DNA of 64,000 bases from Patescibacteria group bacterium (GTDB lineage: Bacteria > Patescibacteriota > Minisyncoccia > Moranbacterales > UBA2206). Within the stretch, counting starts at the first letter, position 1; every line of letters starts with the position of its first letter. Where the stretch lies: the NCBI GenBank assembly GCA_022711335.1, contig JAKLFF010000001.1, forward strand, positions 40,260 through 104,259. Direction: 5' to 3'. Under the pieces are notes generated by a model that was not told the origin of the DNA, searched no databases, and was given only the letters and a program-made list of their open reading frames with translations. Positions 1 to 43,923 of this stretch are shown piece by piece. The position numbers were made by a program, and so were the translations under genes.

Positions 1-755
1 AACCAGGCATTTGGTCGGCTTGCGTATCTTCGCAAATTGGCTGTCCGATGGGTTGCCAATTTTGCGCAACAGGCAAAGGCGGATTTGTGAGAAATTTAAC
101 TTCCGAAGAAATAATCGATCAGATTTTGTTTTGGAAGCAGCATCTCAAGAAAAATAAAATCAGCGGCATTTTTTCCAATATCGTTTTTATGGGAATGGGA
201 GAGCCATTTCTCAATTGGAAAGAGGTATCCAAAAGCATAAAAGATTTGACTGATCCGAAATTATTCGGTTTTGGATCAAGAAGCATATCTGTCTCAACGG
301 TTGGCATTCGGGAAGGAATTGAAAAAATAGCCAAGGAATTTCCCCAGGTGAATCTGGCCATTTCTTTGCATTTCGGAAATAACAAAAAAAGATCAGAATA
401 TATGCCAATTAACAAAGACTATGATTTAAATAACATTAAAAATTCCATTTCCTGTTATTTTCAAAAAACCAGGAGGAAGATTTTTTTGGAATATATCATG
501 CTTGCGGATATTAATGACAGTCAGAAAGACGCGGATGACTTGATTAAGTTTATAAGGTCCATAGATGATAATTATCTTTTGCATCTGAATCTTATTAAAT
601 ATAACGAAACTTCCGGAAAATTTGTTCCTTCAACCGGAACGAAAATGAATGAATTTAAAAATTATCTTGTTTCTAGAGAAATAAGCGTCACAATAAGAAA
701 AAGCCTTGGAGAAGATATCCAAGGCGCATGCGGGCAGCTGGCTGGCAAAAATTAA
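1..755 (+). CDS. rlmN: Radical-SAM rRNA/tRNA adenine-C2 methyltransferase RlmN, 5-prime truncated at window edge
   Basis: The frame stays open back to position 1. It reads PGIWSACVSSQIGCPMGCQFCATG, which is the RlmN CxxxCxxC cluster motif. The C-terminus ...DIQGACGQLAG matches the RlmN terminal motif. Confidence 0.8.
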   Translation, partial: PGIWSACVSSQIGCPMGCQFCATGKGGFVRNLTSEEIIDQILFWKQHLKKNKISGIFSNIVFMGMGEPFLNWKEVSKSIKDLTDPKLFGFGSRSISVSTVGIREGIEKIAKEFPQVNLAISLHFGNNKKRSEYMPINKDYDLNNIKNSISCYFQKTRRKIFLEYIMLADINDSQKDADDLIKFIRSIDDNYLLHLNLIKYNETSGKFVPSTGTKMNEFKNYLVSREISVTIRKSLGEDIQGACGQLAGKN

Positions 756-2422
756 ATATTTTTTACCATATAAGTATCTTCCAGTCTATATTCCAGCTTT
801 TTATAGTATCCCCGGACTCCAACACCTGAAATAACGGCGATTTTTTTTATTCCGAAATCTTGTTTGGCAATTCTTTCAGCTTCGGCAATAAGTTTCTTTC
901 CAAGTCCGATATGCTGGGGAGATTTATTGTCCTTTCTGCTTATCTCGGTCATTTTTCCATAAGTATGCACCTCGCGGATGATAGCGGAATTCCTTAATAT
1001 TGGCATATAATCATACAATTTGTCATTCCCGACTTGACCGGGAATCCAGTTTTTAATTTTTATTTGTTTGGCTAGATTCCCGCTTTCGCGAGAATGACAA
1101 ATAAAGGGAACTCTTAATCGCAACAATGCGAATAATTTTTTCTTGTCTTTTGACACGAATTGCAAAAATATTTCTTTTCCGCCTGATGCGTTATAATCAA
1201 TCCGATCGAGAATTATTTTTTCATTTATTTTATAATCCAGCTTTACTTCCCGGCATCGGATGCATTGGCAGTTTGATCTGGGAATAATCAGCTGGCGCAG
1301 ATTGGATAATTTCGGTCCAGCAATAATTGAAGTGGAGGGAACATCGCGGACCAGGCGGGAAATCCGGACGTAGGGCGGAATGATTTTGTTTTTTATTTCC
1401 AAAACCAGTTTTTCAAACTGCTTATCGCTCATCGGATTGTATTTTCCTTGTTTCCAAGCTTTGTATAAATCGCTGTTTTTCACAACAACAGTCGGATAAA
1501 TTTTGAGCATATCCGGACGAAAATCGGGATTGGAAAATAATTTTTGAAACATTTCCAAATCTCTCTTGGAATTTGATCCGGGAAGTCCGGGCATAATGTG
1601 ATAATTTATTTTGAATCCGGCGTCTTTAAGAAGTTTAGAGGCTTCTATAGTGGCTTCTACATTATGTCCGCGGCTATTAATTTTTAAAATATCATCAAAA
1701 ATATTTTGCACGCCCAGTTCAACTCTCGTGCAGCCCAAATTTCTAAAATTAATTATTTCTTTTTCCGAAATATAATCCGGCCGCGTTTCCAGTGTCAGCC
1801 CAATAATCCTATGCCTAGCCTTTTCATTTTTTCTTTGCTCGATTAGCAATAAATTTTTTGTTACATGTTTCGTGTTATATGTTTTATGTTTTGTGTATTC
1901 ATTGCAGGCGCGGAAACATTCAGTGATGAACCAGCGCTGATATTTTTTGGGAAGATAGGAAAAAGTTCCGCCCATGACGATCAATTCGATTTTGTCAGTT
2001 TTGTGCCCGTTAAGTTCGAGTGATCGAAGCCGGTTTTGCACTTGGGCGTATGGATTAAATTTTGAGAAAATGGCGCGCATAACGGCCGGTTCATTGGAAA
2101 GATAGCTTTTGGGCATTTTGGGTTCAGTCGGGCAATAAAGGCATTTTCCAGGGCAAGGAAATGGCTTTGTAAGGACGGCGACAACGGCTACCCCAGACTG
2201 AGTGCGGATGCTTCGGCTCATCATAACCTTTTCGAGATTGGCGCTTGGTTTGATTTCTTTTTTTTCTATCAGTTTGTTATAAATTTCCCGTAGATCTGCA
2301 TTAGTCGGCAGGGGAAGTCTCAACTTTTTGCAGAGGTCTTTTTTGATTTGCGAAAAATCTTCGGAATTTTTAACATTCCTTTTTATTGCTAATTTTATGA
2401 AGTTGTCATAAGCTGGATTCAT
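752..2422 (-). CDS. elp3: Elp3-like protein: N-terminal radical-SAM domain plus C-terminal GNAT acetyltransferase domain. Carries an in-frame repeat-element insertion.
   Basis: The radical-SAM motif is PFPCPGKCLYCP (CxxxxCxxC). The GNAT tail HIGLGKKLIAEAERIAKQDFGIKKIAVISGVGVRGYYKKLEY is typical of Elp3. The 556 aa ORF reads through repeat copy 1 at 1021..1099. Confidence 0.85.
   Translation of the reverse strand: MNPAYDNFIKLAIKRNVKNSEDFSQIKKDLCKKLRLPLPTNADLREIYNKLIEKKEIKPSANLEKVMMSRSIRTQSGVAVVAVLTKPFPCPGKCLYCPTEPKMPKSYLSNEPAVMRAIFSKFNPYAQVQNRLRSLELNGHKTDKIELIVMGGTFSYLPKKYQRWFITECFRACNEYTKHKTYNTKHVTKNLLLIEQRKNEKARHRIIGLTLETRPDYISEKEIINFRNLGCTRVELGVQNIFDDILKINSRGHNVEATIEASKLLKDAGFKINYHIMPGLPGSNSKRDLEMFQKLFSNPDFRPDMLKIYPTVVVKNSDLYKAWKQGKYNPMSDKQFEKLVLEIKNKIIPPYVRISRLVRDVPSTSIIAGPKLSNLRQLIIPRSNCQCIRCREVKLDYKINEKIILDRIDYNASGGKEIFLQFVSKDKKKLFALLRLRVPFICHSRESGNLAKQIKIKNWIPGQVGNDKLYDYMPILRNSAIIREVHTYGKMTEISRKDNKSPQHIGLGKKLIAEAERIAKQDFGIKKIAVISGVGVRGYYKKLEYRLEDTYMVKNI
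1021..1099. mobile_element. MITE-like double-hairpin element, copy 1, in-frame inside elp3
   Basis: The sequence is tgtcattcccgacttgaccgggaatccag, then a 28 bp AT spacer, then ctagattcccgctttcgcgagaatgaca. The ends are inverted repeats, and each arm contains its own mini-palindrome. Confidence 0.9.
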
Positions 2423-4384: not shown

Positions 4385-5398
4385 ATGGCTCAGAATTATG
4401 GATTAGGCCGGGGTCTTGCCTCGCTTATTCCCCAAAAACGCAAATCCGTCCCTTTTGGCGGATCGCAGCCGGGCGATGAAGCAGAAAAAAAAGTAGTCGA
4501 ACCAAAAGAAGATTTCAATTATTTCGGCGCTTCTGCGGCTCCTGGGAGCGTTGCTGCAGCCATTAAGGCCAATCCTGTTTCAACCGCGTCTCCTAAAAAT
4601 AGCGGCGCAGAGAAAGATAATGGCGCAGGAAATGAAATTCGGGAAGTGGAAATGATAAAAATAGTTCCCAATCCCCACCAGCCAAGGCTGAGTTTTAATG
4701 ATGAAAAACTCGAAGAACTTGCTGGCTCCATCAAAGAGCATGGGATTATCCAGCCGATAACTGTTACAAAAAATAATGGCAATTTTGAAATTGTAACCGG
4801 AGAACGGCGTTTTCAGGCGGCAAAAATGGCTGGTCTTAAGACTGTTCCGGTGATAGTTCGGGATGCGAACGAAAAACAAAAACTGGAGTTGGCTATCACT
4901 GAAAATGTTCAGCGCCATGATCTTGACGCAATTGAAGAAGCCAAAGCCTATAAAAAGCTGATAGAAGAATTTGAAATGAATCAGGAGGAAGTAGCTAAAA
5001 AAATCGGCATAAGCCGCAGTGCGGTAGCCAACAAGATCAGGCTTCTTGGCCTCCCGGTGGAAATTCAAAAAGCACTGATTGCCGGCGATATAACGGAAGG
5101 ACACTGCAAACTGCTTTTGGCAATATCTAATCCGGAAAGACAGAAGGCTTTTTATGAAATGATTTTGAAAAACAAGCTGACCGTCAAGCAAACTGAAACA
5201 AAAACCAAAGAATTTTCAGTCAAGACCCACAAAAGAACATTGCATATTGATCCGGAAATAAAACAAATAGAAGACGAGCTTTCCCAAAAACTGGGTACTA
5301 AGGTAAAACTGACTAAATCAGGCGGGGGAGGAAGAATCATAGTAGAATATTATTCGCAGGAGGAATTGAATAATATTTTGGATAAAATTGCAAAATAA
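4385..5398 (+). CDS. parB: Chromosome partitioning protein ParB/Spo0J
   Basis: The GLGRGLASL N-terminus and the ParB box VTGERRFQAAKMAGLKTVPVIVRD are present, as is the HTH stretch KKIGISRSAVANKIRLLGLP. There is an expanded GC-rich N-terminal linker. Confidence 0.9.
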   Translation: MAQNYGLGRGLASLIPQKRKSVPFGGSQPGDEAEKKVVEPKEDFNYFGASAAPGSVAAAIKANPVSTASPKNSGAEKDNGAGNEIREVEMIKIVPNPHQPRLSFNDEKLEELAGSIKEHGIIQPITVTKNNGNFEIVTGERRFQAAKMAGLKTVPVIVRDANEKQKLELAITENVQRHDLDAIEEAKAYKKLIEEFEMNQEEVAKKIGISRSAVANKIRLLGLPVEIQKALIAGDITEGHCKLLLAISNPERQKAFYEMILKNKLTVKQTETKTKEFSVKTHKRTLHIDPEIKQIEDELSQKLGTKVKLTKSGGGGRIIVEYYSQEELNNILDKIAK

Positions 5399-6966: not shown

Positions 6967-6976
6967 GAGTTTATTA

Positions 6977-7105
6977 TGAATTTAGAATTTAGAATTTCGA
7001 ATTTTGAATTGGAATCTGGAATATTGAATTTCGAGGTAATCTCGGCTGTTTTTTATTTTAAATTCTTAATTCCCATTCTAAATTCCAACTTCACAATTCA
7101 AAATT
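6977..7105. repeat. Inverted arrays of heptameric GAATTTN repeats flanking a ~60 bp core, intergenic between topA 3-prime end and rel 5-prime end
   Basis: The left arm is gaatttagaatttagaatttcgaattttgaattggaat. The right arm is ttctaaattccaacttcacaattcaaaattc, the reverse orientation. Confidence 0.6.
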
Positions 7106-9373
7106 CTATTTTATGTAGCTACATTCCTTGTTCGAACACCTGGCTTTTCCTTTAGCGGCAAACGTCATAAGGCTTTTGCACTTCGGGCATTTTTCTCCGG
7201 TCGGCTTATTCCAGAGGGCGAAATCGCAGTTTGGATAAGCATTACATCCGTAAAAAATTCTTCCCTTTTTGCTTTTTCGCTCGACTATTTCGCCTTTTTC
7301 ACATTTTGGACAGGTAATCCCGGTTTTATTTTCTATCTTCTTTATATTCTTACAATTGGGATAATTGGAACATCCCAGAAAGGCTCCAAACCGGCCTCGT
7401 TTTACGGCCATTTTAGCTCCGCAAAGTTCGCAAATTTCTCCGGCATGCTGTTCGTCTAATTTTTTTTCAGAATCTGTTTTTTCAGTATAGCGGCAGTTGG
7501 GATAATTTGAACAAGCGATGAATTTTCCAAAGCGGCCGAATTTCAAAACCAGGTCTCCGCCGCATTCAGGACAATTGCGGTCAAGTTTTTCCTGAAAAGA
7601 TTCCTTTTTGACTTCTTTGGTTTTGTTTTTCAGATGCTTGATGAAGGGATCATAAAAACTTTGGATGACTGGAACCCATTTTATTTTTCCTTCAGCTATT
7701 TCATCAAAATCTTCTTCTACCGTAGCGGTAAAGTTGATGTCGACAATTTCCGGGAAATGTTCGACGAGAAGATCATTGACGACGAGGCCGATTTCAAGGG
7801 GATAAAGCCTTTTCTCTTCGTTTTTTTCGATATATTTTCGGTCGAGTATAGTTGAAATAGTCGGAGCGTATGTAGATGGGCGGCCAATCCCATTTTCTTC
7901 AAGAACTTTGACCAAAGTCGCCTCAGAGTATCGGGGCGGCGGAACAGTTGTTTTTTCTTCAACATTTATGTCGGCTGTTTCCAGTTCGTCTCCGGTTTTG
8001 AGCGGAGGAAGGATATTTTCCCCGTTGGCTTTCCGGAAGGAGTTGACTTTCAAAAACCCGTCAAACTTTATGGTAGATCCGCTGGCGGAAAGAAGATAAT
8101 TATTTTTCGATTTTTTATTCTGGGCTGAAATAGAAACTTTGACCGAATCAAAAACCGCGGGTGCCATTTGCGAAGCAATCATTCTTTCCCAAATAAGCCT
8201 GTATAGCTTGTACTGTTCGTGTTCCAGATCCTTTTTTAGCTCATCCGGATGCTTATCGGGATAAGCTGGACGGATAGCCTCGTGCGCTTCCTGGGCGTTT
8301 TTTGATTTATTTTTAAAAAATCTGGGGTTTTCAAGCGCATACTCTTTTCCAAATTCTTTTTCTATCGTTTTTTTGGCAGAGAGAATGGATTCGAGCGAAA
8401 GATTGACGCTGTCGGTTCTCATATAGGTTATGAATCCCTGCTCATAAAGCTTCTGGGCGGTCATCATGGTTTTTTTAGCGGAGTAACCCAGATTATTTAT
8501 GGCGCTTTGCTGCAGAGTGGAAGTGGTGAAAGGAGGGCTGGGATGACGGAGTGTTTCTTTTTCGGAGATATCGATAATTTCAATTTTGGATTTCTCCAGG
8601 TCAGTGGCGGATTCTTTAGCGCTTTTCTCGTCAGAGAAAATAGTTCTTTTAGTTTTATAGTCTCCGGCGAAAAGCTTGATAGTTTTCGCTACTTCCGTCT
8701 TTTTTCCGTTCTTTTCTATGATTTCCGCTTTAAATTTTTCAAGATCGGATGCGCCGTTTTTTTTGAGTTCAACAGAAACGTTCCAATATTTTTCACTTTT
8801 GAATTTTTCAATTTCCCGCTCCCGTTCGCAAATGAAACGGAGGGCAACAGATTGCACTCGTCCGGCACTGAGACCGCGGCGGATTTTTTTCCAGAGAAAC
8901 GGAGAAAGCTTATATCCGACTAGCCGATCAAGAATCCTTCTGGCCTGCTGGGCGTCAACCAGGTCAATGTCAATCTTGCGCGGATTTTCAAGCGCCTTAG
9001 TTATGGCATTTTTGGTAATTTCATGGAAAACTATCCGTTCAAAATTCTTTTTTTTGGAAAGCCCTAAAGCTTCAACGAGGTGCCAGGAGATAGCTTCTCC
9101 TTCGCGGTCTTCATCGGTTGCAAGAATCACTTTTTCGGCTGAAGATGCCTGTTTTTTAAGCTCTTTTACTCGGTTTATAGCTTTCGGAGGAATTTCATAT
9201 TTCGGCTCAAAGTTGTTTTCAACATCAATCGCCAATTCTTTTTCCGGCAAATCACGAATGTGTCCGTAGGAAGATTTTACGGAAAAACCTTTTCCAAGAA
9301 ATTTGGAAATAGTTTTGGCTTTAGTTGGAGACTCAACAATGACTAACTTCATGAAGCATGGAACATATAGCAT
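7106..9373 (-). CDS. topA: DNA topoisomerase I with C-terminal zinc-ribbon repeats
   Basis: The Toprim start is MKLVIVESPTKAKTISKFLG, so the true start is probably the second Met near 9352. The active-site region YITYMRTDS is present. There are multiple C-terminal CxxC...CxxC zinc fingers. Confidence 0.9.
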   Translation of the reverse strand: MLYVPCFMKLVIVESPTKAKTISKFLGKGFSVKSSYGHIRDLPEKELAIDVENNFEPKYEIPPKAINRVKELKKQASSAEKVILATDEDREGEAISWHLVEALGLSKKKNFERIVFHEITKNAITKALENPRKIDIDLVDAQQARRILDRLVGYKLSPFLWKKIRRGLSAGRVQSVALRFICEREREIEKFKSEKYWNVSVELKKNGASDLEKFKAEIIEKNGKKTEVAKTIKLFAGDYKTKRTIFSDEKSAKESATDLEKSKIEIIDISEKETLRHPSPPFTTSTLQQSAINNLGYSAKKTMMTAQKLYEQGFITYMRTDSVNLSLESILSAKKTIEKEFGKEYALENPRFFKNKSKNAQEAHEAIRPAYPDKHPDELKKDLEHEQYKLYRLIWERMIASQMAPAVFDSVKVSISAQNKKSKNNYLLSASGSTIKFDGFLKVNSFRKANGENILPPLKTGDELETADINVEEKTTVPPPRYSEATLVKVLEENGIGRPSTYAPTISTILDRKYIEKNEEKRLYPLEIGLVVNDLLVEHFPEIVDINFTATVEEDFDEIAEGKIKWVPVIQSFYDPFIKHLKNKTKEVKKESFQEKLDRNCPECGGDLVLKFGRFGKFIACSNYPNCRYTEKTDSEKKLDEQHAGEICELCGAKMAVKRGRFGAFLGCSNYPNCKNIKKIENKTGITCPKCEKGEIVERKSKKGRIFYGCNAYPNCDFALWNKPTGEKCPKCKSLMTFAAKGKARCSNKECSYIK

Positions 9374-9412
9374 GTAACAAAAATAAAAATGTTATATGTT
9401 TTATGTTATGTG

Positions 9413-10528
9413 TTATATGATTATATAGTTCTGTCCTCCTATATTTTTCACCCAACCCTTGATTTCCATAATTGAAAGCGTTGAAGATACATCCGCTGTT
9501 CCCAGTCTAGAGAGTTTCGAAATATTGTCAATATGGATTGGATCGGAAGACAGAATGTCAAGAAGGATTTTTTCATTTTCTGAATCGGGATTTTTTTGAA
9601 TATTCTTTTTTGGTTTTTCACAAAGAGACAGATCAAATTCTTCCAAAACATCTTTAATTCCCAAAACCAACTTGGCGCCTCTTTTAATGAGATTATTGGT
9701 TCCGATAGATTGCGGAGAAAAGATTGGTCCCGGGACGGAAAAAACTTCTCGGTTTGAGTCCAGCGCCATCTGCGCTGTGATAAGCGCGCCGGATGTTTCT
9801 CCAGCTTCGACAACCAGCGTCCCTCGAGACAGGCCGGCGACAATGCGGTTTCGCGCTGGAAAAGTAAGCGGGCCGGCTTTGATTCCAACGGGATATTCAG
9901 AAAGAAGCAAGCCATTTTCTATAATTTCTCGAGACAAATTGAAATTATTTCTCGGATAAAGGCTCAAGTCATCCAATCCGTTTCCAAGGACGGCAATGGT
10001 TTTTCCGCCGGCTTCAAGCGCTCCGCGGTGAGCAAAAGTGTCAATTCCTATGGCCATGCCGCTTACGACTGTAAAGCCGGAATTAGCCAGTTCGCGGGAA
10101 AAGCTTTTGGCAATCTGCGATCCATAAGAAGTATATTTCCTGGATCCTACCACTGAAATAAGCGGGGCGGAATTAATAGCGTCTGTTTTTCCCTTTATAT
10201 ACAACAGGTAGGGGGGATTTGAGATTTCTTTGAGCAGGCTCGGATATTCAGGAAAATCAAAAGTTATCATGCTAATTTTCTCCTTTTCCATTTTTTCCCA
10301 TTCTTCATCGGGATTTATATTATTTCTTTCAAAAACAATTCTTTTTGCTAGTTTTTCTCCGATTTTAGCGAACAGCAGTTCACTAAAATCCGCCTTCCAA
10401 ACGGCTTCCGGATCAGAAAAATATCCCAGCATCATTTTCATCTTTTGCGTCCCGACGCCGGGGATGATATTCAAGGCATTAAGATATTTCATTTTTAAAA
10501 GATAACACAAGGAACGTCCTCTTGACAA
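9413..10528 (-). CDS. dprA: DNA processing protein DprA (Smf)
   Basis: The Rossmann-like DprA core reads SVVGSRKYTSYGSQIAKSFSRELANSGFTVVSGMAIGIDTFAHRGAL...LVVEAGETSGALITAQMAL. The likely start is an internal Met (MKYLNAL, near 10492). Confidence 0.85.
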   Translation of the reverse strand: MSRGRSLCYLLKMKYLNALNIIPGVGTQKMKMMLGYFSDPEAVWKADFSELLFAKIGEKLAKRIVFERNNINPDEEWEKMEKEKISMITFDFPEYPSLLKEISNPPYLLYIKGKTDAINSAPLISVVGSRKYTSYGSQIAKSFSRELANSGFTVVSGMAIGIDTFAHRGALEAGGKTIAVLGNGLDDLSLYPRNNFNLSREIIENGLLLSEYPVGIKAGPLTFPARNRIVAGLSRGTLVVEAGETSGALITAQMALDSNREVFSVPGPIFSPQSIGTNNLIKRGAKLVLGIKDVLEEFDLSLCEKPKKNIQKNPDSENEKILLDILSSDPIHIDNISKLSRLGTADVSSTLSIMEIKGWVKNIGGQNYIII

Positions 10529-20700: not shown

Positions 20701-21969
20701 ATGGGAATTTTTTCAAAAATTTTAGGTTTCGGAAACATTTCACAGGATTTTTTGCTTTCTTTGGATATAGGGACGGAAGTGGTAAAAGCACTAGTTTTTA
20801 AAATCAATAAAGAAAGCGGATTAGGGATAGTAAAAGGAGTTGGAAGATCAAGGCAAGGGCTTAAAGATATGCATAGCGGAGCTGTTTCTGATATAAAGGG
20901 AGTTATTGATAATTCAAAAAAAGCGATTGAAATGGCCAAAAACATGGCCGGAGCCAGAAAGATAGAAAAAGCTGTCATTGGAATTGCCGGAGAGCTGGTA
21001 AAAGGAACAACTACTACTGTTCATTATGAAAGAATTCGCCCGGAAATTCGAATTGATCTTCCGGAACTCAAAAACATTATTCAAAAAGTCCAATGGAAAG
21101 CCTTTGACCGCATCAGGCAGCAGCTGGCCTGGGAAACGGGACACAGCGAAATTGAAGTGAAGCTGATAAACGCGGCGATTGTGGATGTTCGGATCGATGG
21201 ATACAAGGTGACCAACCCAATCGGTTTTCAGGGACGCGACGTATCTATCGCTGTTTTTAATGCATATGCCCCGATGATTCATTTAGGGGCGCTTCAGGCT
21301 ATTGCGGATGAATTGAAACTGGAGCTGCTAAATGTTGCGGCTGAACCTTACGCTGTGGCCAAATCTATGGGACTTGACGATATAACTGACTTTAATGCGA
21401 TTTTTATTGATATAGGAGGAGGAACGACCGACATCGCGGTAGTGAGAAACGGCGGACTGGAAGGAACAAAAATGTTTGCTTTAGGAGGCAGGGCTTTTAC
21501 AAAAAGACTAGCGCATGAACTGGGCGTGGGATTTGAAGAAGCGGAGGTTTTGAAAATAAGGTATTCTGAAGGAAAATTAGGGCGGGACGTCAGTATGAAA
21601 GTAGAAAGGATATTGGAAGACGATTGCAATGTTTGGCTTTCCGGCATTGAACTTTCTCTTTCTGAGTTTGCTTCAAGCGATCTTCTTCCTCATAGATTTT
21701 TCCTTTGCGGCGGAGGTTCTGGCCTTCCGGGAATAAAAAAGGCGCTTGTATCTTCTGGATGGACGGGAAATCTTCCCTTTGCCAGAATTCCGGAAGTTAG
21801 TTTTTTGCAGCCTAAAGACGTGGTTAATATAAAAGATGAAACAGGCGAGCTTCGCGATCCGCAAGATATAACGCCAATGGGATTGGCCAATCTGGCCTTA
21901 GATCTGGTTGGCGAAGAAAAAGTTATGGCCGGAATCTTAAGAAGAGCGGTAAAAATGATACAAAAATAG
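20701..21969 (+). CDS. Actin-fold ATPase of the FtsA/PilM family (FtsA-like)
   Basis: Phosphate-1 is LSLDIGTEVVKALVF. Phosphate-2/adenosine is IFIDIGGGTTDIAVV...FALGGRAF. The length of 422 aa fits FtsA, but no ftsZ lies downstream. Confidence 0.6.
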   Translation: MGIFSKILGFGNISQDFLLSLDIGTEVVKALVFKINKESGLGIVKGVGRSRQGLKDMHSGAVSDIKGVIDNSKKAIEMAKNMAGARKIEKAVIGIAGELVKGTTTTVHYERIRPEIRIDLPELKNIIQKVQWKAFDRIRQQLAWETGHSEIEVKLINAAIVDVRIDGYKVTNPIGFQGRDVSIAVFNAYAPMIHLGALQAIADELKLELLNVAAEPYAVAKSMGLDDITDFNAIFIDIGGGTTDIAVVRNGGLEGTKMFALGGRAFTKRLAHELGVGFEEAEVLKIRYSEGKLGRDVSMKVERILEDDCNVWLSGIELSLSEFASSDLLPHRFFLCGGGSGLPGIKKALVSSGWTGNLPFARIPEVSFLQPKDVVNIKDETGELRDPQDITPMGLANLALDLVGEEKVMAGILRRAVKMIQK

Positions 21970-22105
21970 AATTTTGAATTTGGAATTTTGAATTTGGAAT
22001 TAAAATGCAAAAAATAAAAAATACATAAATTATCATAGTGCCAATTTATTTTTTGGGCTTATATTTATTCTAAATTCTAAATACTAAATTCTAAATTTCA
22101 ATTTT
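21968..22105. repeat. Inverted arrays of heptameric GAATTT(N)/GGAATTT repeats in the intergenic region
   Basis: The left arm is gaattttgaatttggaattttgaatttggaatt. The right arm is ttctaaattctaaatactaaattctaaatttc. The architecture matches 6977..7105. Confidence 0.6.
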
Positions 22106-24115
22106 ATGCACCAGACATTCTATATCGATATAGATGAAGAAATCACTTCTATAGTCGAAAAATTGAGAAATTCAAAATCAGGAGAAGTTGTGCTCGTTGT
22201 TCCCAAGAGAGCGTTGCTTATCCAGAGCATCGTCAATCTTCGGCTTCTCAAAAAAGAAGCCGACTCGCTGAATGTTTCCTTGAGTATTGTTACTCAAGAC
22301 AATTTGGGGAAGGTTTTAGTTGAAAAAGCAGGCATATTTTACCAAGAAAGCCTGAAGGAAACAGAAAATGATGAGATAATAAGAAGTGAAAGCAGAATTG
22401 GCGAAAGCTATTTTGACAATCGCGACTATTCGAAAATAGGGGACAATCTTCATTCAGAGGAAGAAAAAATGGGAAAAATAGGTTCCGACAGTTATTTTGA
22501 CAGGAGCAGCAATCTTTCTTCTGAAATGGACAAGGATAAAAAAGCTGTTTTTAGAAACGTTTCTCCGGAACAGCCTTCCTCTTCCAGCCAGCCAAGTAGT
22601 GAGAAAATTTTAAATAAAGAATTGGTTTTGGGATTTGGAAATAATGCCAATTTAAAAAAAGGAGCTGTCAGCATAGACTCCTCGCTGTCTTCTTATCAAA
22701 TGCATCCAAGTCAAGCAGGTTTGCCGCAAGCGCCTGTGCAGGCGGCCAGAAATAATCCCCCGTCTGTTTCTAGGCCTTCCGAATTATTTCCTCGACCAAT
22801 AGAAGGCGTACGGGGAAATGCTTATGCTGGCCGGTCGGGAGACAGAAAAATAGATAATTTTTTCCAACATGGAAATTATTCTGTTCCGGCAGAAGAAAGC
22901 AAAAACGGTTTCAAGAACGCCAGCCTTTCTAAGAAAACATTTAAAGTTTTTTGGATTTTCGGGCTGATTCTTATTTTGCTTGTTTTGGCAGCGGCTGCTT
23001 ATTTCATAGTGCCCAAAGCAGATGTTGTCATTACTGCGAAGGGGACTCAAAAGGCTCAGGAAGCAGAAGTGAAAGCTGACGCTAAAATTGAAACAGTGAA
23101 TTATGAGGAAAAAGTTATTCCAGCAGAGGCAGTTTCAACTGTTGTAACGGCTTCGAAAAGCGTAATTCCCAGTGGAAACAAAGGGGCATCGAGTGGAAAA
23201 AAGGCCAGAGGGACGATCACTATATATAATGAGTTTAGTTCAGCCAGCCAGTCTCTTGTAGCGACGACGCGCTTTCAATCGGAAGATGGAAAAATATTCA
23301 GGCTGGAAAAGGGGGTTACTGTTCCTGGAACGTCAAAAGAAGGCGGGGAAACTAAAGCCGGAACAATCGAAGTGGAAGTAGCGGCAGATGAATCCGGAGA
23401 ATCCTATAATATCAGCCCTTCAAAATTTACTATTCCTGGATTTAAAGATAGCGGAAACGGAAAATACGAAAAGATTTACGCCAAATCAGAAAAAGCGATG
23501 TCTGGCGGAGGAAGCGAAAATAGCTCTTCGGAGGGAGGAAATAAAAAAATAACGGAAGCGGATATAGCCGGAGCAAAAAGCAAAATTTTATCGGATCTTC
23601 AAACCCAGGTAAGGAATAAAATCGAAGAATCGGCTGGAGAGGGAATGGTCGTTTTGGATGATGCCATCAATAGCGAGGAAGCGGTTTATACTCTTTCAAA
23701 TTCAGCTGGAGAAGCAGTCGAAAAATTCGAAATCAAAGCGCAAATGAAAGTAAACGCGCTGGTTTTCAAAAAATCTGACTTGGAAAATGTCGTAGGAAAA
23801 ATTGCCGCTAATTCAGGAAACGGAAAAACTAGCCTGGAAGGAAGTTCAATGGATATTTCTTATGGCAAGGCAGATGTTGATTTTAAGGCCGAAACTGTTC
23901 TAATTAAAGCAATCGGAACGATTAAAAACGGCTCAGACATTGATTTGGAAAATATCAAGAAGGAAATTTTAGGAAAAACAAATGAAGAATTGGAAACATA
24001 TTTGGGTGCTTATCCGAACATAGAAAAAGTGGATGTAACCTATTGGCCGCCGTTTCTAAATGGAAAAATTCCCCTTTATGAGAAACGGGTCAATGTGGCG
24101 GTAGAAGTCGAATAA
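22106..24115 (+). CDS. Hypothetical bitopic membrane protein (cytoplasmic N-domain, Ser/Pro-rich linker, single TM, large extracytoplasmic domain)
   Basis: 669 aa with the TM segment FWIFGLILILLVLAAAAYFIV near residue 290. I recognise no family motif. Confidence 0.55.
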   Translation: MHQTFYIDIDEEITSIVEKLRNSKSGEVVLVVPKRALLIQSIVNLRLLKKEADSLNVSLSIVTQDNLGKVLVEKAGIFYQESLKETENDEIIRSESRIGESYFDNRDYSKIGDNLHSEEEKMGKIGSDSYFDRSSNLSSEMDKDKKAVFRNVSPEQPSSSSQPSSEKILNKELVLGFGNNANLKKGAVSIDSSLSSYQMHPSQAGLPQAPVQAARNNPPSVSRPSELFPRPIEGVRGNAYAGRSGDRKIDNFFQHGNYSVPAEESKNGFKNASLSKKTFKVFWIFGLILILLVLAAAAYFIVPKADVVITAKGTQKAQEAEVKADAKIETVNYEEKVIPAEAVSTVVTASKSVIPSGNKGASSGKKARGTITIYNEFSSASQSLVATTRFQSEDGKIFRLEKGVTVPGTSKEGGETKAGTIEVEVAADESGESYNISPSKFTIPGFKDSGNGKYEKIYAKSEKAMSGGGSENSSSEGGNKKITEADIAGAKSKILSDLQTQVRNKIEESAGEGMVVLDDAINSEEAVYTLSNSAGEAVEKFEIKAQMKVNALVFKKSDLENVVGKIAANSGNGKTSLEGSSMDISYGKADVDFKAETVLIKAIGTIKNGSDIDLENIKKEILGKTNEELETYLGAYPNIEKVDVTYWPPFLNGKIPLYEKRVNVAVEVE

Positions 24116-25195: not shown

Positions 25196-25228
25196 AATAA
25201 TATAACATATAACATTTGAACATATAAC

Positions 25229-25711
25229 ATGGCAGAAAAAAAGAATGAAAAAAATGAAGAAGCAGAGAGTCAGAAAACTGAAAAATCTGAAGTTTTGAAA
25301 GTGGAAAAGAATGAAAAGGAAGAAATTTCCGAAAAGAAGAAAAAGGTGAAAAAAATTAAAAAACAGATTCAAAGAGGCCGAGCTAGCATAAAATGCACCT
25401 ATAATAACACTATGGTTAGCATCTCGGATGCTTCCGGGAGCGTTCTTGGCTGGTCAACTTCGGGGCTATTGGGCTTTAAGGGAGCGAAAAAAGCTACTCC
25501 TTACGCCGCCACCCAAGTTGTCGGATCAGTGAGCGAAAAAGTGAAAAAATACGGAATTCGCGAATTGGAAGTTTATGTCAAAGGAGTCGGTTCAGGGAGA
25601 GAAGCATCAATCCGGGCACTTTCCAACAATGGTTTTGATCTAATTTTAATAAAAGATATAACTCCTATTCCTCATAATGGATGCCGGCCTAAAAAGCCGA
25701 GAAGGGTATAA
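25229..25711 (+). CDS. rpsK: 30S ribosomal protein S11 with Lys/Glu-rich N-terminal extension
   Basis: ASIKCTYNNTMVSISDASGSVLGWSTSGLLGFKGAKKATPYAA. Confidence 0.9.
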   Translation: MAEKKNEKNEEAESQKTEKSEVLKVEKNEKEEISEKKKKVKKIKKQIQRGRASIKCTYNNTMVSISDASGSVLGWSTSGLLGFKGAKKATPYAATQVVGSVSEKVKKYGIRELEVYVKGVGSGREASIRALSNNGFDLILIKDITPIPHNGCRPKKPRRV

Positions 25712-35285: not shown

Positions 35286-36164
35286 TTAAATTGAAAAAAT
35301 AGCAATTCTCCATCTGGAAGCCAGATCTCTTTGAAAACTCGGTTTGCACTTCGGGAAGGACGTTTTTATCAGTTTGGATATTTTTGTTTTTTGTTCGGGA
35401 CTTATCTCCATATAACATGAAACATGGAACATGGAACAATTTTCTTTCAAGGTTTTTATTTGCTGTAATAATTTTTTATAGTGATCAAGTCCGTCGATTC
35501 CGGAAAGTAAAGCGGACTGCGGTTCATAATTTTTAACATCCGGTGCTGTTGAATTATAAATTTTTTCAGAAAGATAGGGAAGATTGGCGACAATAATTAA
35601 ATGGTTAAATTGTTTAATGGCTGGATTGTTTAAAAAGTGGCTTAACAGATTTGATCTGATAAATTTTATTCCGCCAGCTGGCGGATTATCCAGTTTATAT
35701 TTTTTGGCGTTTATTTTTGCGATTTTTAGAGCTTTTTCTGAAATGTCAATTCCGTAAAAGGACATCAAATGTCCATAATGGACATTTGATGTCCGAAGAT
35801 TTTTTGCAATAGAAATAATAATATTTCCAGAACCCGTACCAACGTCAATAATTGCAATTTTGTTATTTTTACTAGTTGCTAGTTGCAAATTACCGGTCAC
35901 TAATTCAACCAGATGCTCTGTTTCCGGCCGTGGAATGAGCGTGTGGCGGTTTACTTTGAAATCCAGGCCGTAGAACCCCTTCTGGCCTAAAATATACGCC
36001 AGAGGCTCGTTTTTTCGCCTTCTGGCGGTCATGGCTTGAAGTTTTTTTTCTTCAAGCTTGGTTAATTTCAATTCGGGGCGCGTCGAAACATATTCTCTTG
36101 ACTTTTTGAGAATATGTGCTAGAATCAATTCTTGTTCGTAGGGGGAAATAATGTTTTTTTTCAT
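35286..36164 (-). CDS. prmC: Release-factor glutamine N5-methyltransferase PrmC (HemK)
   Basis: NEPLAYILGQKGFYGLDFKVNRHTLIPRPETE is present. The SAM motif is IIDVGTGSGNI. NPPY-like IVANLPYL is present. It is adjacent to prfA on the same strand. Confidence 0.8.
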   Translation of the reverse strand: MKKNIISPYEQELILAHILKKSREYVSTRPELKLTKLEEKKLQAMTARRRKNEPLAYILGQKGFYGLDFKVNRHTLIPRPETEHLVELVTGNLQLATSKNNKIAIIDVGTGSGNIIISIAKNLRTSNVHYGHLMSFYGIDISEKALKIAKINAKKYKLDNPPAGGIKFIRSNLLSHFLNNPAIKQFNHLIIVANLPYLSEKIYNSTAPDVKNYEPQSALLSGIDGLDHYKKLLQQIKTLKENCSMFHVSCYMEISPEQKTKISKLIKTSFPKCKPSFQRDLASRWRIAIFSI

Positions 36165-38218: not shown

Positions 38219-38357
38219 ATAATAGACAACCACTTACTGTGCCCCTGCTATGATTTTATAAGAAAAATGCGTATGATGCAAATATTGGCTGGGAATAAAG
38301 TTAAAAAATGACCGCCTTTGCATATGCATTGGCGGTTTTTTTTGCGAAGAGAAGACT

Positions 38358-41782: not shown

Positions 41783-42655
41783 ATGACTAAAATTAAAAAA
41801 GCTATTCTTCCAGTTGCGGGTTTTGGAACCCGGTTCTTGCCGGCGACTAAAGCCCAGCCGAAAGAAATGCTTCCGGTCGTTGACAAGCCAGCTATTCAAT
41901 ATTTGGTCGAAGAAGCAGCGGCAGCTGGAATTGAAGAAATTGTTTTTGTAACCGGTCGCGGAAAAAGAGCTATTGAAGATCATTTTGACTATTCATACGA
42001 GCTTGATCATACGCTAGTTGAAAAAAATAAGCACGATTTGGTCAAAAAAGTGAGGGAAGTTGAAGATTTGGCAAAATTTTCATATGTTCGACAACCCGTT
42101 CCTCTGGGAGACGGCCATGCTGTTCTTTGCGCTCGGCATATTGTTGGAGATGAGCCTGTGCTTGTGATGTTCGGCGATAGTTTATATGACAGCGAAGTTC
42201 CCGCTGCAAAACAACTTATTGATGTATATGAAAAATATAATGATGTCGTGGTTGGTTTGTCCGAAGTAAAACCAGACGAGGTTGAAAGATTTGGCGTTAT
42301 AGACGGAATTGATATCGGAAATGGAATCTATGAGATTAAAAAATTTGTCGAGAAGCCCAAAAAAGAAGAAGCGCCAAGCAATTTAGTGGCGGTTGGAAAA
42401 TATATAATAACTCCCGAAATTTTTGAGCTGTTGTCGACAATGAAAGGCGGAAAATCGGGAGAAATAAGGCTGGCTGACGCTTTTGATCTGATGTTGCAGA
42501 AAAACAGGCCGATTTACGGAAAAAAACTGGATGGCGAATGGCTGGATACGGGCGAAAAGCTTACTTTTATCACAACAACCATAAAGCTTGGTATAAAGCA
42601 TCCTGAAATAGGAGAAAAACTAAAAAGATTTATTAAAGAACTTGATATAAAATGA
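41783..42655 (+). CDS. galU: UTP--glucose-1-phosphate uridylyltransferase
   Basis: KAILPVAGFGTRFLPATKAQPKEMLPVVDKPAIQYLVEEA. Confidence 0.85.
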   Translation: MTKIKKAILPVAGFGTRFLPATKAQPKEMLPVVDKPAIQYLVEEAAAAGIEEIVFVTGRGKRAIEDHFDYSYELDHTLVEKNKHDLVKKVREVEDLAKFSYVRQPVPLGDGHAVLCARHIVGDEPVLVMFGDSLYDSEVPAAKQLIDVYEKYNDVVVGLSEVKPDEVERFGVIDGIDIGNGIYEIKKFVEKPKKEEAPSNLVAVGKYIITPEIFELLSTMKGGKSGEIRLADAFDLMLQKNRPIYGKKLDGEWLDTGEKLTFITTTIKLGIKHPEIGEKLKRFIKELDIK

Positions 42656-43923
42656 AAATTGCCATTCAAGCGGCGGATTTGGACAGCCAGCGGATTGATG
42701 GAACGCGGGTTTATATTTTGAATGTTCTAAAATACTTTGGAAAGCTCGATGAATCCAGTGATTTTTTGGTTTATCATAAAAAGAATTTCAATTCGGAACT
42801 CGAGCCGCCGGAATTTCCAAACTACAAAATAATTCAAAAAAATTCAGCTTGTATCTGGACGCAGACCAGATTTGCCTGGGAAATTTGGAAAGACAAGCCG
42901 GATGTCCTCTGGATGCCGATGCAGGCGCTTCCAATTATACGAAGGAAAAATCTTAAAACCGTGATAACTGTCCACGATCTGGCTTTCAAAATTTTTCCGA
43001 ATCAATTTACAAGAAATGATTTAAGGCGACTAAATTTTTATGCCGATTACGCTATAAAAAATTCTTCAAAAATAATCGCTGTTTCGGAGTCGACAAAAAA
43101 AGATATTTTAAAGTTTTATCCTGAAATAAAAGAAGATAAAATCAAAGTTATTTATCATGGGTTCGATGAAGGAGTTTTTGGTAAAAGATATGATAATAGT
43201 GAGATACTGGATATTTTGGAGAAATATAATATTATCAATAAAGTTCAAAGTTCAAAGTTCAAAGTTCAAAGCTACAGTTCAAAACTAAAAGTTACTTTTA
43301 AATACCTGCTATATGTCGGAGCTTTACAGCCAAGGAAAAATTTGATTTTATTGGTTAAGGCATTCGAAAGACTAAAAGAAAAATATTGTCATTCCGGCCA
43401 ACGAGCCGGAATCCAGTCTGGAAACAAAGATAATGCACTAGATTCCCGCTTTCGCGGGAATGACAAAAACGCCGGTGATTTTAGCAATTTGAAATTAGTT
43501 TTGGTTGGGAAACCAGCCTGGATGGCGGAAGAAATTTTAGAAAGAATAAAAAAATCAGAATTTGCAAACGATATAATTTTAGCCGGCCAAGTTGGCTTTG
43601 GTGATCTTGGTAAAATTTATCAAGGCGCCAGCGCTTTTGTGTTTCCCTCGCTTTATGAAGGCTTCGGGATTCCGATTTTGGAAGCTTTTGCGTCGGGAGT
43701 GTCGGTGATTTGCGCCAACAATTCTTCTCTTCCGGAAGTAGCCGGAGAAGCGGCGCTTTATTTCAAAAATAATAATCCTCAAGATTTAGCCATACAAATT
43801 GAAAAAATATTATTAAGCGAAGAATTTAAAAAAGACCTTGTTTCAAAAGGCCTCTTGCAGCTTCGAAAATTTTCTTGGGAAAAATGCGCCCGGGAAACTT
43901 TAAGTTATCTCAAATCAGGCTAA
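42652..43923 (+). CDS. Family-4 (GT-B) glycosyltransferase carrying a 7-bp tandem repeat and an in-frame MITE-like insertion in the interdomain region
   Basis: The C-terminal GT4 core is LLYVGALQPRKNL...FVFPSLYEGFGIPILEAFASGVSVICAN. Confidence 0.75.
   Translation: MKIAIQAADLDSQRIDGTRVYILNVLKYFGKLDESSDFLVYHKKNFNSELEPPEFPNYKIIQKNSACIWTQTRFAWEIWKDKPDVLWMPMQALPIIRRKNLKTVITVHDLAFKIFPNQFTRNDLRRLNFYADYAIKNSSKIIAVSESTKKDILKFYPEIKEDKIKVIYHGFDEGVFGKRYDNSEILDILEKYNIINKVQSSKFKVQSYSSKLKVTFKYLLYVGALQPRKNLILLVKAFERLKEKYCHSGQRAGIQSGNKDNALDSRFRGNDKNAGDFSNLKLVLVGKPAWMAEEILERIKKSEFANDIILAGQVGFGDLGKIYQGASAFVFPSLYEGFGIPILEAFASGVSVICANNSSLPEVAGEAALYFKNNNPQDLAIQIEKILLSEEFKKDLVSKGLLQLRKFSWEKCARETLSYLKSG
43241..43271 (+). 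repeat. Heptanucleotide tandem repeat (AAGTTCA)x4.4 inside the GT4 coding sequence
   Basis: aagttca aagttca aagttca aagttca aag. It translates as KVQSSKFKVQS. Confidence 0.85.
43387..43465. mobile_element. MITE-like double-hairpin element, copy 3, in-frame inside the GT4 gene
   Basis: tgtcattccggccaacgagccggaatccag, a spacer, then ctagattcccgctttcgcgggaatgaca. The encoded peptide is CHSGQRAGIQSGNKDNALDSRFRGNDK. Confidence 0.9.

Follow-up and report, generated by a model that had tools for sequence, protein, structure and literature searches.

Does a short heptanucleotide repeat inside a glycosyltransferase gene of a Moranbacteria genome act as a phase-variation switch, or is it a length polymorphism of a quieter kind? 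The repeat lies in a gene for a GT4-family glycosyltransferase (GT) within a 64-kb stretch of DNA (64,000 nt, the whole of the sequence analysed and referred to here as the window), and an earlier note on this DNA had proposed that slipped-strand mispairing at the repeat might turn the gene on and off. In this report, we describe the repeat and the protein loop that it encodes, compare it among strains and with a sister species, place it alongside other heptamer arrays in the same window and weigh the explanations for its presence.

Heptanucleotide repeats are known to act as switches in well-studied bacteria. In Escherichia coli K1, the neuO gene of the CUS-3 prophage, which encodes an O-acetyltransferase, contains a coding (AAGACTC)n tract of 3–53 units, and 66% of 64 genomes have the gene out of frame (PMC13001214). 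The heptanucleotide simple sequence repeats (SSRs) of Haemophilus influenzae include TGAAAGA repeats in the hmw1A and hmw2A promoters and intragenic tracts of AATTTTG (14 units) and AACAACC (1–13 units); the hmw/H. influenzae tracts are described as 13–38 units long and strain-variable, with truncated alleles included (PMC2651432). Tract length matters greatly here, as SSR mutability climbs steeply with it, and coding SSRs are enriched near gene termini and are suppressed in mid-gene (PMC3315296). A standard phasome screen requires at least five units where the repeat unit is long (PMC6321876).

Heptanucleotides are also reported to be the most abundant class of long-unit SSR in most prokaryotic genomes, possibly owing to the way in which they interact with the polymerase (as summarised in PMC4679880). 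The TAACTGA arrays of Beggiatoaceae, Cyanobacteria and Bacteroidetes have 2–6 units, are mostly intergenic and often lie directly 5′ of start codons; they differ between strains in 7-nt steps and, for Beggiatoaceae, a role as sites of translational regulation has been suggested (PMC4679880). The genome studied here belongs to the Candidate Phyla Radiation (CPR), for which the earlier note knew of no documented case of this type of switching. Our searches of the full-text literature agree with this: no paper on SSR phase variation in the CPR was found and none containing both 'phase-variable' and 'Candidate Phyla Radiation', and none of the top results on SSR phase variation mentioned Patescibacteria.

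The array and the loop that it encodes

The sequence at 43240–43299 consists of four perfect AAAGTTC units followed by a degenerate tail that reads AAAGCTAC, AGTTC, AAAACTA and AAAGTTAC in turn (Table 1). The perfect period-7 run covers 43240–43271 (~4.6 units) and degenerate units can be traced to ~43295, with TRF calling 43240–43283 as a period-7 repeat of 6.4 copies and 84% matches. A probe of three AAAGTTC units has a single match in the window, at this site, where shuffled sequences lead one to expect 0.01, and the array is the sole perfect tandem array (at least three units, any period from 4 to 12) in the 64 kb, with Markov shuffles giving 0. No Rfam match was found in the array region. 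The AAGTTCA heptamer reported from 43241 in the earlier note denotes this array with the unit shifted by one base, and the note's description of a heptamer repeat within the GT open reading frame (ORF) is therefore correct. An assembly artefact can be ruled out, since 12 independent public assemblies all contain the array in identical form.

Table 1. Features discussed in the text, in window coordinates unless a contig is named
Feature	Position	Strand	Basis or detail
GT4-family glycosyltransferase gene, 423 aa, array at 46% of its length	42652..43923	+	Pfam PF13439, PF00534, PF13692
Perfect heptanucleotide array (AAAGTTC)x4	43240..43267	+	Direct reading, TRF, probe, perfect-array scan
Degenerate tail of the AAAGTTC array	43268..43299	+	TRF rows 43240-43283, 43247-43289, 43256-43295
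Second in-frame GT insertion, unrelated to the array; MITE-like inverted repeat encoding ...HSGQRAGIQ...DSRFRGND...	43386..43466	+	Inverted repeat I4, gap in A1
~112-nt hairpin element, (GAATTNA)x8, loop, (AAAATTC)x4	L009 1385-1500 (= window ~42655)		
Intergenic heptamer-array hairpin element, (GAATTTN)n-loop-(NAAATTC)n	6967..7110	.	RNA fold -35 kcal/mol, z -5.1
Second intergenic heptamer-array hairpin element, right arm abutting the ATG at 22106	21962..22105	+	Fold z -3.8
Heptamer arrays directly 5′ of start codons	4345-4375, 9389-9426 (minus), 22067-22097, 25200-25230		
Imperfect heptamer array in ELP3-like radical-SAM gene 752..2422(-)	1854..1896	-	TRF, translation
Imperfect heptamer array in prmC 35286..36164(-), encoding CSMFHVS	35409..35438	-	

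The array is in frame within the ORF and encodes KVQSSKFKVQSYSSKLKV; the perfect part and the tail together encode an inserted loop at approximately residues 197–216. The host protein has the two domains expected of a GT4 enzyme, an N-terminal Glyco_transf_4 domain (PF13439, E 8.7e-14) and a C-terminal Glycos_transf_1 domain (PF00534, E 2.7e-29), and its gene lies among sugar-nucleotide and glycan-synthesis genes. The best 120 of ~8000 homologues are all full length, mostly 370–374 aa, and full-length orthologues with 51–84% identity are widespread. In an alignment of homologues (alignment A1), the array region appears as an insertion, relative to most homologues, between conserved KYNI and YLLYVG motifs. 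The array insert is absent from nearly all orthologues, and unrelated inserts occupy the same site in other lineages (P0003, P0011 and P0025/26).

An AlphaFold (AF2) model built on the alignment (mean pLDDT 84, pTM 0.83) has two domains, with pLDDT falling below 50 at residues 204–214 (the array) and 249–274 (the MITE-like insert); a third low-confidence segment is seen at residues 10–12 and the rest of the model scores ~90. In the model, the array loop is flanked by a helix (residues 182–191) and by the first strand of the C-terminal half (residues 217–222). Taken together, the inserts in the alignment and the low-confidence loop at the domain junction place the array in an insertion-tolerant surface loop, at a site that varies in length among homologues and lies outside the core of the fold. 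The interdomain-linker position given in the earlier note is thus borne out.

The second in-frame insertion in the gene has the inverted-repeat form TTGTCATTCCGG...CGCGGGAATGACAA. Assemblies break or show N-gaps at this point: Logan contigs begin there and two scaffolds have N-gaps. Two 413-aa variants of the GT protein (L017, L021) were considered as possible length alleles and rejected; they result from N-gap scaffolding at the MITE-like insert and do not involve the array. Related copies, with similar CCGGAATGAC / CGCGGGAATGAC motifs, closely precede other genes, at the start codons at 2422 (minus strand) and 2529, and the P0012 and P0050 proteins carry similar peptide inserts at the MITE-like site of the GT.

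Copy number, reading frame and a sister species

The consequences of a change in copy number were examined by simulation. Alleles with two, three, five or six units run into a stop 6–9 codons past the array and would yield N-domain stubs of 209–218 aa, whilst those with one or seven units keep the frame (416 and 430 aa). The repeat is within the ORF and its unit, at 7 nt, cannot be divided by 3; gain or loss of one unit therefore shifts the frame, as the earlier note had claimed, and two of every three slippage events would be lethal to the protein.

Is the copy number seen to vary? The GT protein of the window is identical to HRZ95665.1 from Candidatus Moranbacteria and belongs to a 90% cluster whose four members are each 423 aa long and are spread over 17 contigs. 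At consensus level, exactly four units are present in all 12 distinct records (12 samples/assemblies from ENA, JGI and NCBI), which represent four SNP haplotypes 0–6 SNPs apart within the GT gene. In order to avoid bias toward intact GT proteins, the flanking genes (21 and 23 contigs) were looked up also, and every complete GT on these contigs is 423 aa long. Ten predicted variant products (those of the two-, three-, five- and six-unit alleles for both N-terminal haplotypes and of the one- and seven-unit alleles for the window haplotype) were sought in a collection of 15 billion proteins and none is on record; a protein search for fragment variants with the 97-aa insert region returned two candidates and nothing usable. 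Over 19.5 kb, the most divergent strain is 99.3% identical and differs by nine indels, none of which falls in a heptamer array. The earlier note had suggested that strain variants be inspected for length heterogeneity: neither this nor an OFF allele was found among the 12 assemblies and their four haplotypes. Consensus assemblies conceal minority alleles, and the constancy of copy number is weaker evidence than it appears because the sampled strains are so close (0–0.7% divergence). As a side observation, the sole simple-repeat indel in the 19.5-kb comparison is in a poly-T run (38336–38343) past a GC hairpin, terminator-like in form, with eight T in the window and seven in strain L002.

Two Logan k=31 contigs from different runs (L019 and L020) end inside the array, at ~43268–43270, after four units plus A or plus AAA, whereas megahit and SPAdes assemblies cross it. 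The ends may reflect either a minor allele of at least five units or another long AAAGTTC array in the genome or sample; in both cases, the two pure-period 31-mers would become ambiguous, breaking the assembly graph within the array.

One relative differs in unit count. Logan contig L001, from a sister species, carries a GT orthologue (P0002) with 79% nucleotide identity to the window gene and an intact ORF of 386 aa. The orthologue shares the insert, but there the insert is shorter by exactly 21 nt (three units), and the difference between the lineages is therefore a multiple of 3 nt that leaves the ORF intact. Comparison of the two genes gives a dN/dS of 0.07 with a dS of 1.4, and the enzyme is therefore under strong purifying selection. 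Slippage does appear to operate over evolutionary time, but the one change that has become fixed leaves the frame intact. Of all stretches identical in the two genes, the longest (31 nt) spans the last perfect unit and the tail of the array. This is slightly odd for a neutral loop, but the case that it makes for constraint at the nucleotide level is only marginal (rough run-length P 0.05–0.2).

Period-7 arrays elsewhere in the window

The array is not the only period-7 repeat in the window. Six imperfect period-7 arrays are present where shuffles lead one to expect none, and other periods from 4 to 13 give 0–1, an enrichment of period 7 over other periods of the type that marks the heptamer direct-repeat arrays of prokaryotes. 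The STRR heptamers of cyanobacteria are arrays of this kind.

Two of the features in Table 1 are intergenic elements that fold as long imperfect hairpins. Both have a left arm of (GAATTTN)5-8, a loop that ends in a T-run plus ATT and a right arm of (NAAATTC)5-8, followed by ATTTTATG. The loops end in TTTTTTATTTT in one case and TTTATT in the other and are dissimilar in sequence. The only relatives found around the 21.9-kb element were strains identical over 4.3 kb, which are uninformative on the mutability of its arrays. Arrays also stand immediately in front of genes, preceding those that start at 4385, 9373 (minus strand), 22106 and 25229; the genes fronted in this way are parB, a 755-aa gene, a 669-aa gene and rpsK. 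The units include TTTCGAA, ATAACAT and TAAATTC, and in some arrays the ATG is itself part of the last unit. A look-up of the 755-aa gene, which neighbours two intergenic arrays, gave no record.

Imperfect heptamer arrays are found within coding sequences also. That in the ELP3-like gene encodes YTKHKTYNTKHVTKN, a stretch that coincides exactly with a gap of ~10 aa against PDB 6iad, and that in prmC matches a 7-aa (21-nt, three-unit) gap against HemK (1sg9). Residues ~158–166 of PrmC hold a further sequence, DNPPAGGIKF, the NPPAG part of which aligns to a gap in HemK 1sg9 and which resembles the NPPAGEAG insert of the P0003 GT orthologue; this may be another repeat-derived in-frame insertion.

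The earlier note had recommended a scan for similar tracts in surface-related genes. When this was done for the window, the other heptamer arrays proved to be intergenic or in housekeeping genes, and no further contingency-type tract (a G/C run of at least 8, or another 4- to 9-nt unit repeated at least three times) was found in the 64 kb, which includes a large glycan cluster. Beyond the window, a GTDB-wide scan for NAANTTC x4 gave at least 120 matches across many phyla, (AAAGTTC)3-5 arrays included, and among the (AAAGTTC)n matches listed, 8 of 11 lie outside long open frames. Among the heptamer arrays of the window, that in the GT gene is the youngest and the closest to perfect, and it is nothing peculiar to a surface gene.

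A further array is found at the GT gene itself in some strains. In the haplotype represented by L009, L010 and L011, a heptamer-array hairpin element of ~112 nt is located exactly between the stop codon of the upstream nucleotidyltransferase gene and the start of the GT gene, where it swaps the ATGAAA start for a new ATGTTG start (MKI to MLI). The strains with the element have flanking sequence 99.5–99.9% identical to the window, and the sister species lacks it. Elements of this type are therefore polymorphic and gained between very close strains. The AAAATTC arm of the element and the AAAGTTC unit of the GT array are one base apart. The GT array itself has neither a partner arm within 400 nt nor a fold (z +1.1), as a hairpin or the terminal inverted repeats of a MITE would have, and neither the unit array nor its tail recurs in the window. 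A 22-nt core, GTTCAAAGCTACAGTTCAAAAC, has no match in GTDB genomes and one in JGI contigs, on a contig without similarity to the window, so that the multiple copies expected of a mobile repeat were seen neither in the window nor in these scans. A mobile origin of the GT array is possible but unproven.

Switch, remnant or tolerated microsatellite

How is the array best explained? In our view, it is probably a coding microsatellite born of slippage, kept in frame by purifying selection within a tolerant loop and stable at four units. The array would have been born and have grown by replication slippage in the GT4 surface loop, immediately ahead of the strand that opens the C-terminal domain. Slips of one or two units would truncate the protein and such alleles would be removed by purifying selection, leaving only three-unit changes (21 nt, or one KVQSSKF heptad) to persist; this would account for the four perfect units in the window lineage and the single unit in the sister species, with the frame kept in both. 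The analysis shows the anatomy of the array, the effects of unit number on the frame, the status of the loop as an insertion, the constancy among assemblies, the 21-nt difference between species and the period-7 enrichment; that slippage generated the array, and that selection explains why in-frame states alone are seen, is our inference. At four units the tract would be effectively stable, giving rise to loop length polymorphism rather than to an adaptive on/off switch, and the array would be one case of a genome-wide tendency toward period-7 arrays. Like other in-frame coding microsatellites, it shows a fixed lineage difference that preserves the frame, in a disordered, insertion-tolerant loop; it differs from them in having a unit of 7 nt rather than 3 or 6.

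The alternative put forward in the earlier note is a contingency locus, at which slipped-strand mispairing would toggle the GT between ON (four units) and OFF (three or five) at a useful rate and so diversify a surface glycan, as NeuO does. The structural parts of that proposal have held up (the 7-nt unit, the frameshift and the linker position), and the rapid stops in both shifted frames (within 6–9 codons), the proximity of sugar-nucleotide and glycan-synthesis genes and the existence of a coding heptanucleotide switch in neuO (PMC13001214) are all in its favour. The resemblance to neuO is considerable: in each case a 7-nt unit lies in the ORF of an enzyme that modifies surface polysaccharide, only frame-keeping counts give the full-length protein and three units correspond to one protein heptad (PMC13001214). 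The functional part of the proposal has fared less well, with all 12 assemblies (four haplotypes) ON at four units and none of the predicted variant products among 15 billion proteins. Four perfect units are fewer than the cut-off of at least five (PMC6321876) and far fewer than the 13–53 units given for proven heptanucleotide loci (PMC2651432, PMC13001214), hmw having 13–38 units and neuO 3–53, with 66% of genomes OFF. Furthermore, the neuO tract is at the 5′ end of its gene and varies between almost all genomes, whereas the GT array is invariant, always ON and in the middle of a conserved core gene (dN/dS 0.07), coding SSRs being enriched near termini (PMC3315296). The heptamer tracts of H. 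influenzae are likewise tied to surface proteins, with slippage as the assumed mechanism (PMC2651432), but those are long tracts that vary from strain to strain, with truncated alleles among them, and none of this applies to the GT array. The window, large glycan cluster included, offers no other tract of the contingency type. On this evidence, a contingency locus that toggles at a useful rate looks rather improbable. The two k=31 contigs that end within the array are what a mixed population of four- and five-unit cells would cause, and might in principle be the trace of a slower ON/OFF switch of a cell-envelope GT, with a minority of three- or five-unit cells hidden in the consensus; we consider this very doubtful.

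The remaining explanations concern the origin of the insert or a role for its nucleotide sequence. The insert might be the solo-arm remnant of one of the genome's heptamer-array hairpin elements, a proposal that bears on origin only and is compatible with stability at four units. Intact elements of the (GAATTTN)n-loop-(NAAATTC)n type are present at two sites in the window (6967–7110 and 21962–22105), an element ending in (AAAATTC)x4, one base off AAAGTTC, comes and goes directly 5′ of the GT among close strains, the linker of other lineages is prone to insertions and the 31-nt tail is identical between the two species despite a dS of 1.4. Against this, the GT array has no opposite arm and no fold, there is no second array or tail copy in the window, the 22-nt core is all but unmatched in the GTDB and JGI scans and the loops of the three elements share so little sequence that they form no clear-cut transposable family. 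We regard such an origin as unlikely. Finally, the tract could be a functional element at the nucleotide level, for example an internal regulatory site, or an array bound by a single-strand-binding protein that reads heptamers. Other heptamer arrays of the window abut start codons, as do the TAACTGA arrays proposed to be regulatory (PMC4679880), which the window resembles also in its period-7 enrichment, and the tail has changed little between the two species. The GT array differs from these prokaryotic arrays in lying inside an ORF. It is without structure, is missing from nearly all orthologues and varies in unit count between the two species that carry it, whilst its conservation is of marginal significance (P 0.05–0.2), making this explanation extremely improbable.

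What, then, does the array mean for the biology of the Moranbacteria? If the tract did switch, ultra-small episymbionts would be using the bet-hedging trick of host-adapted pathogens, varying their surface glycans against phages or hosts, for example, and even a low-rate switch would give the Candidate Phyla Radiation its first described simple-sequence contingency locus. On present evidence, the array is instead an example of heptamer slippage adding heptad-sized loops to conserved proteins. More worthy of follow-up is the broader feature of the genome to which it belongs: an abundance of period-7 arrays, some of them strain-polymorphic hairpin elements at the starts of genes.
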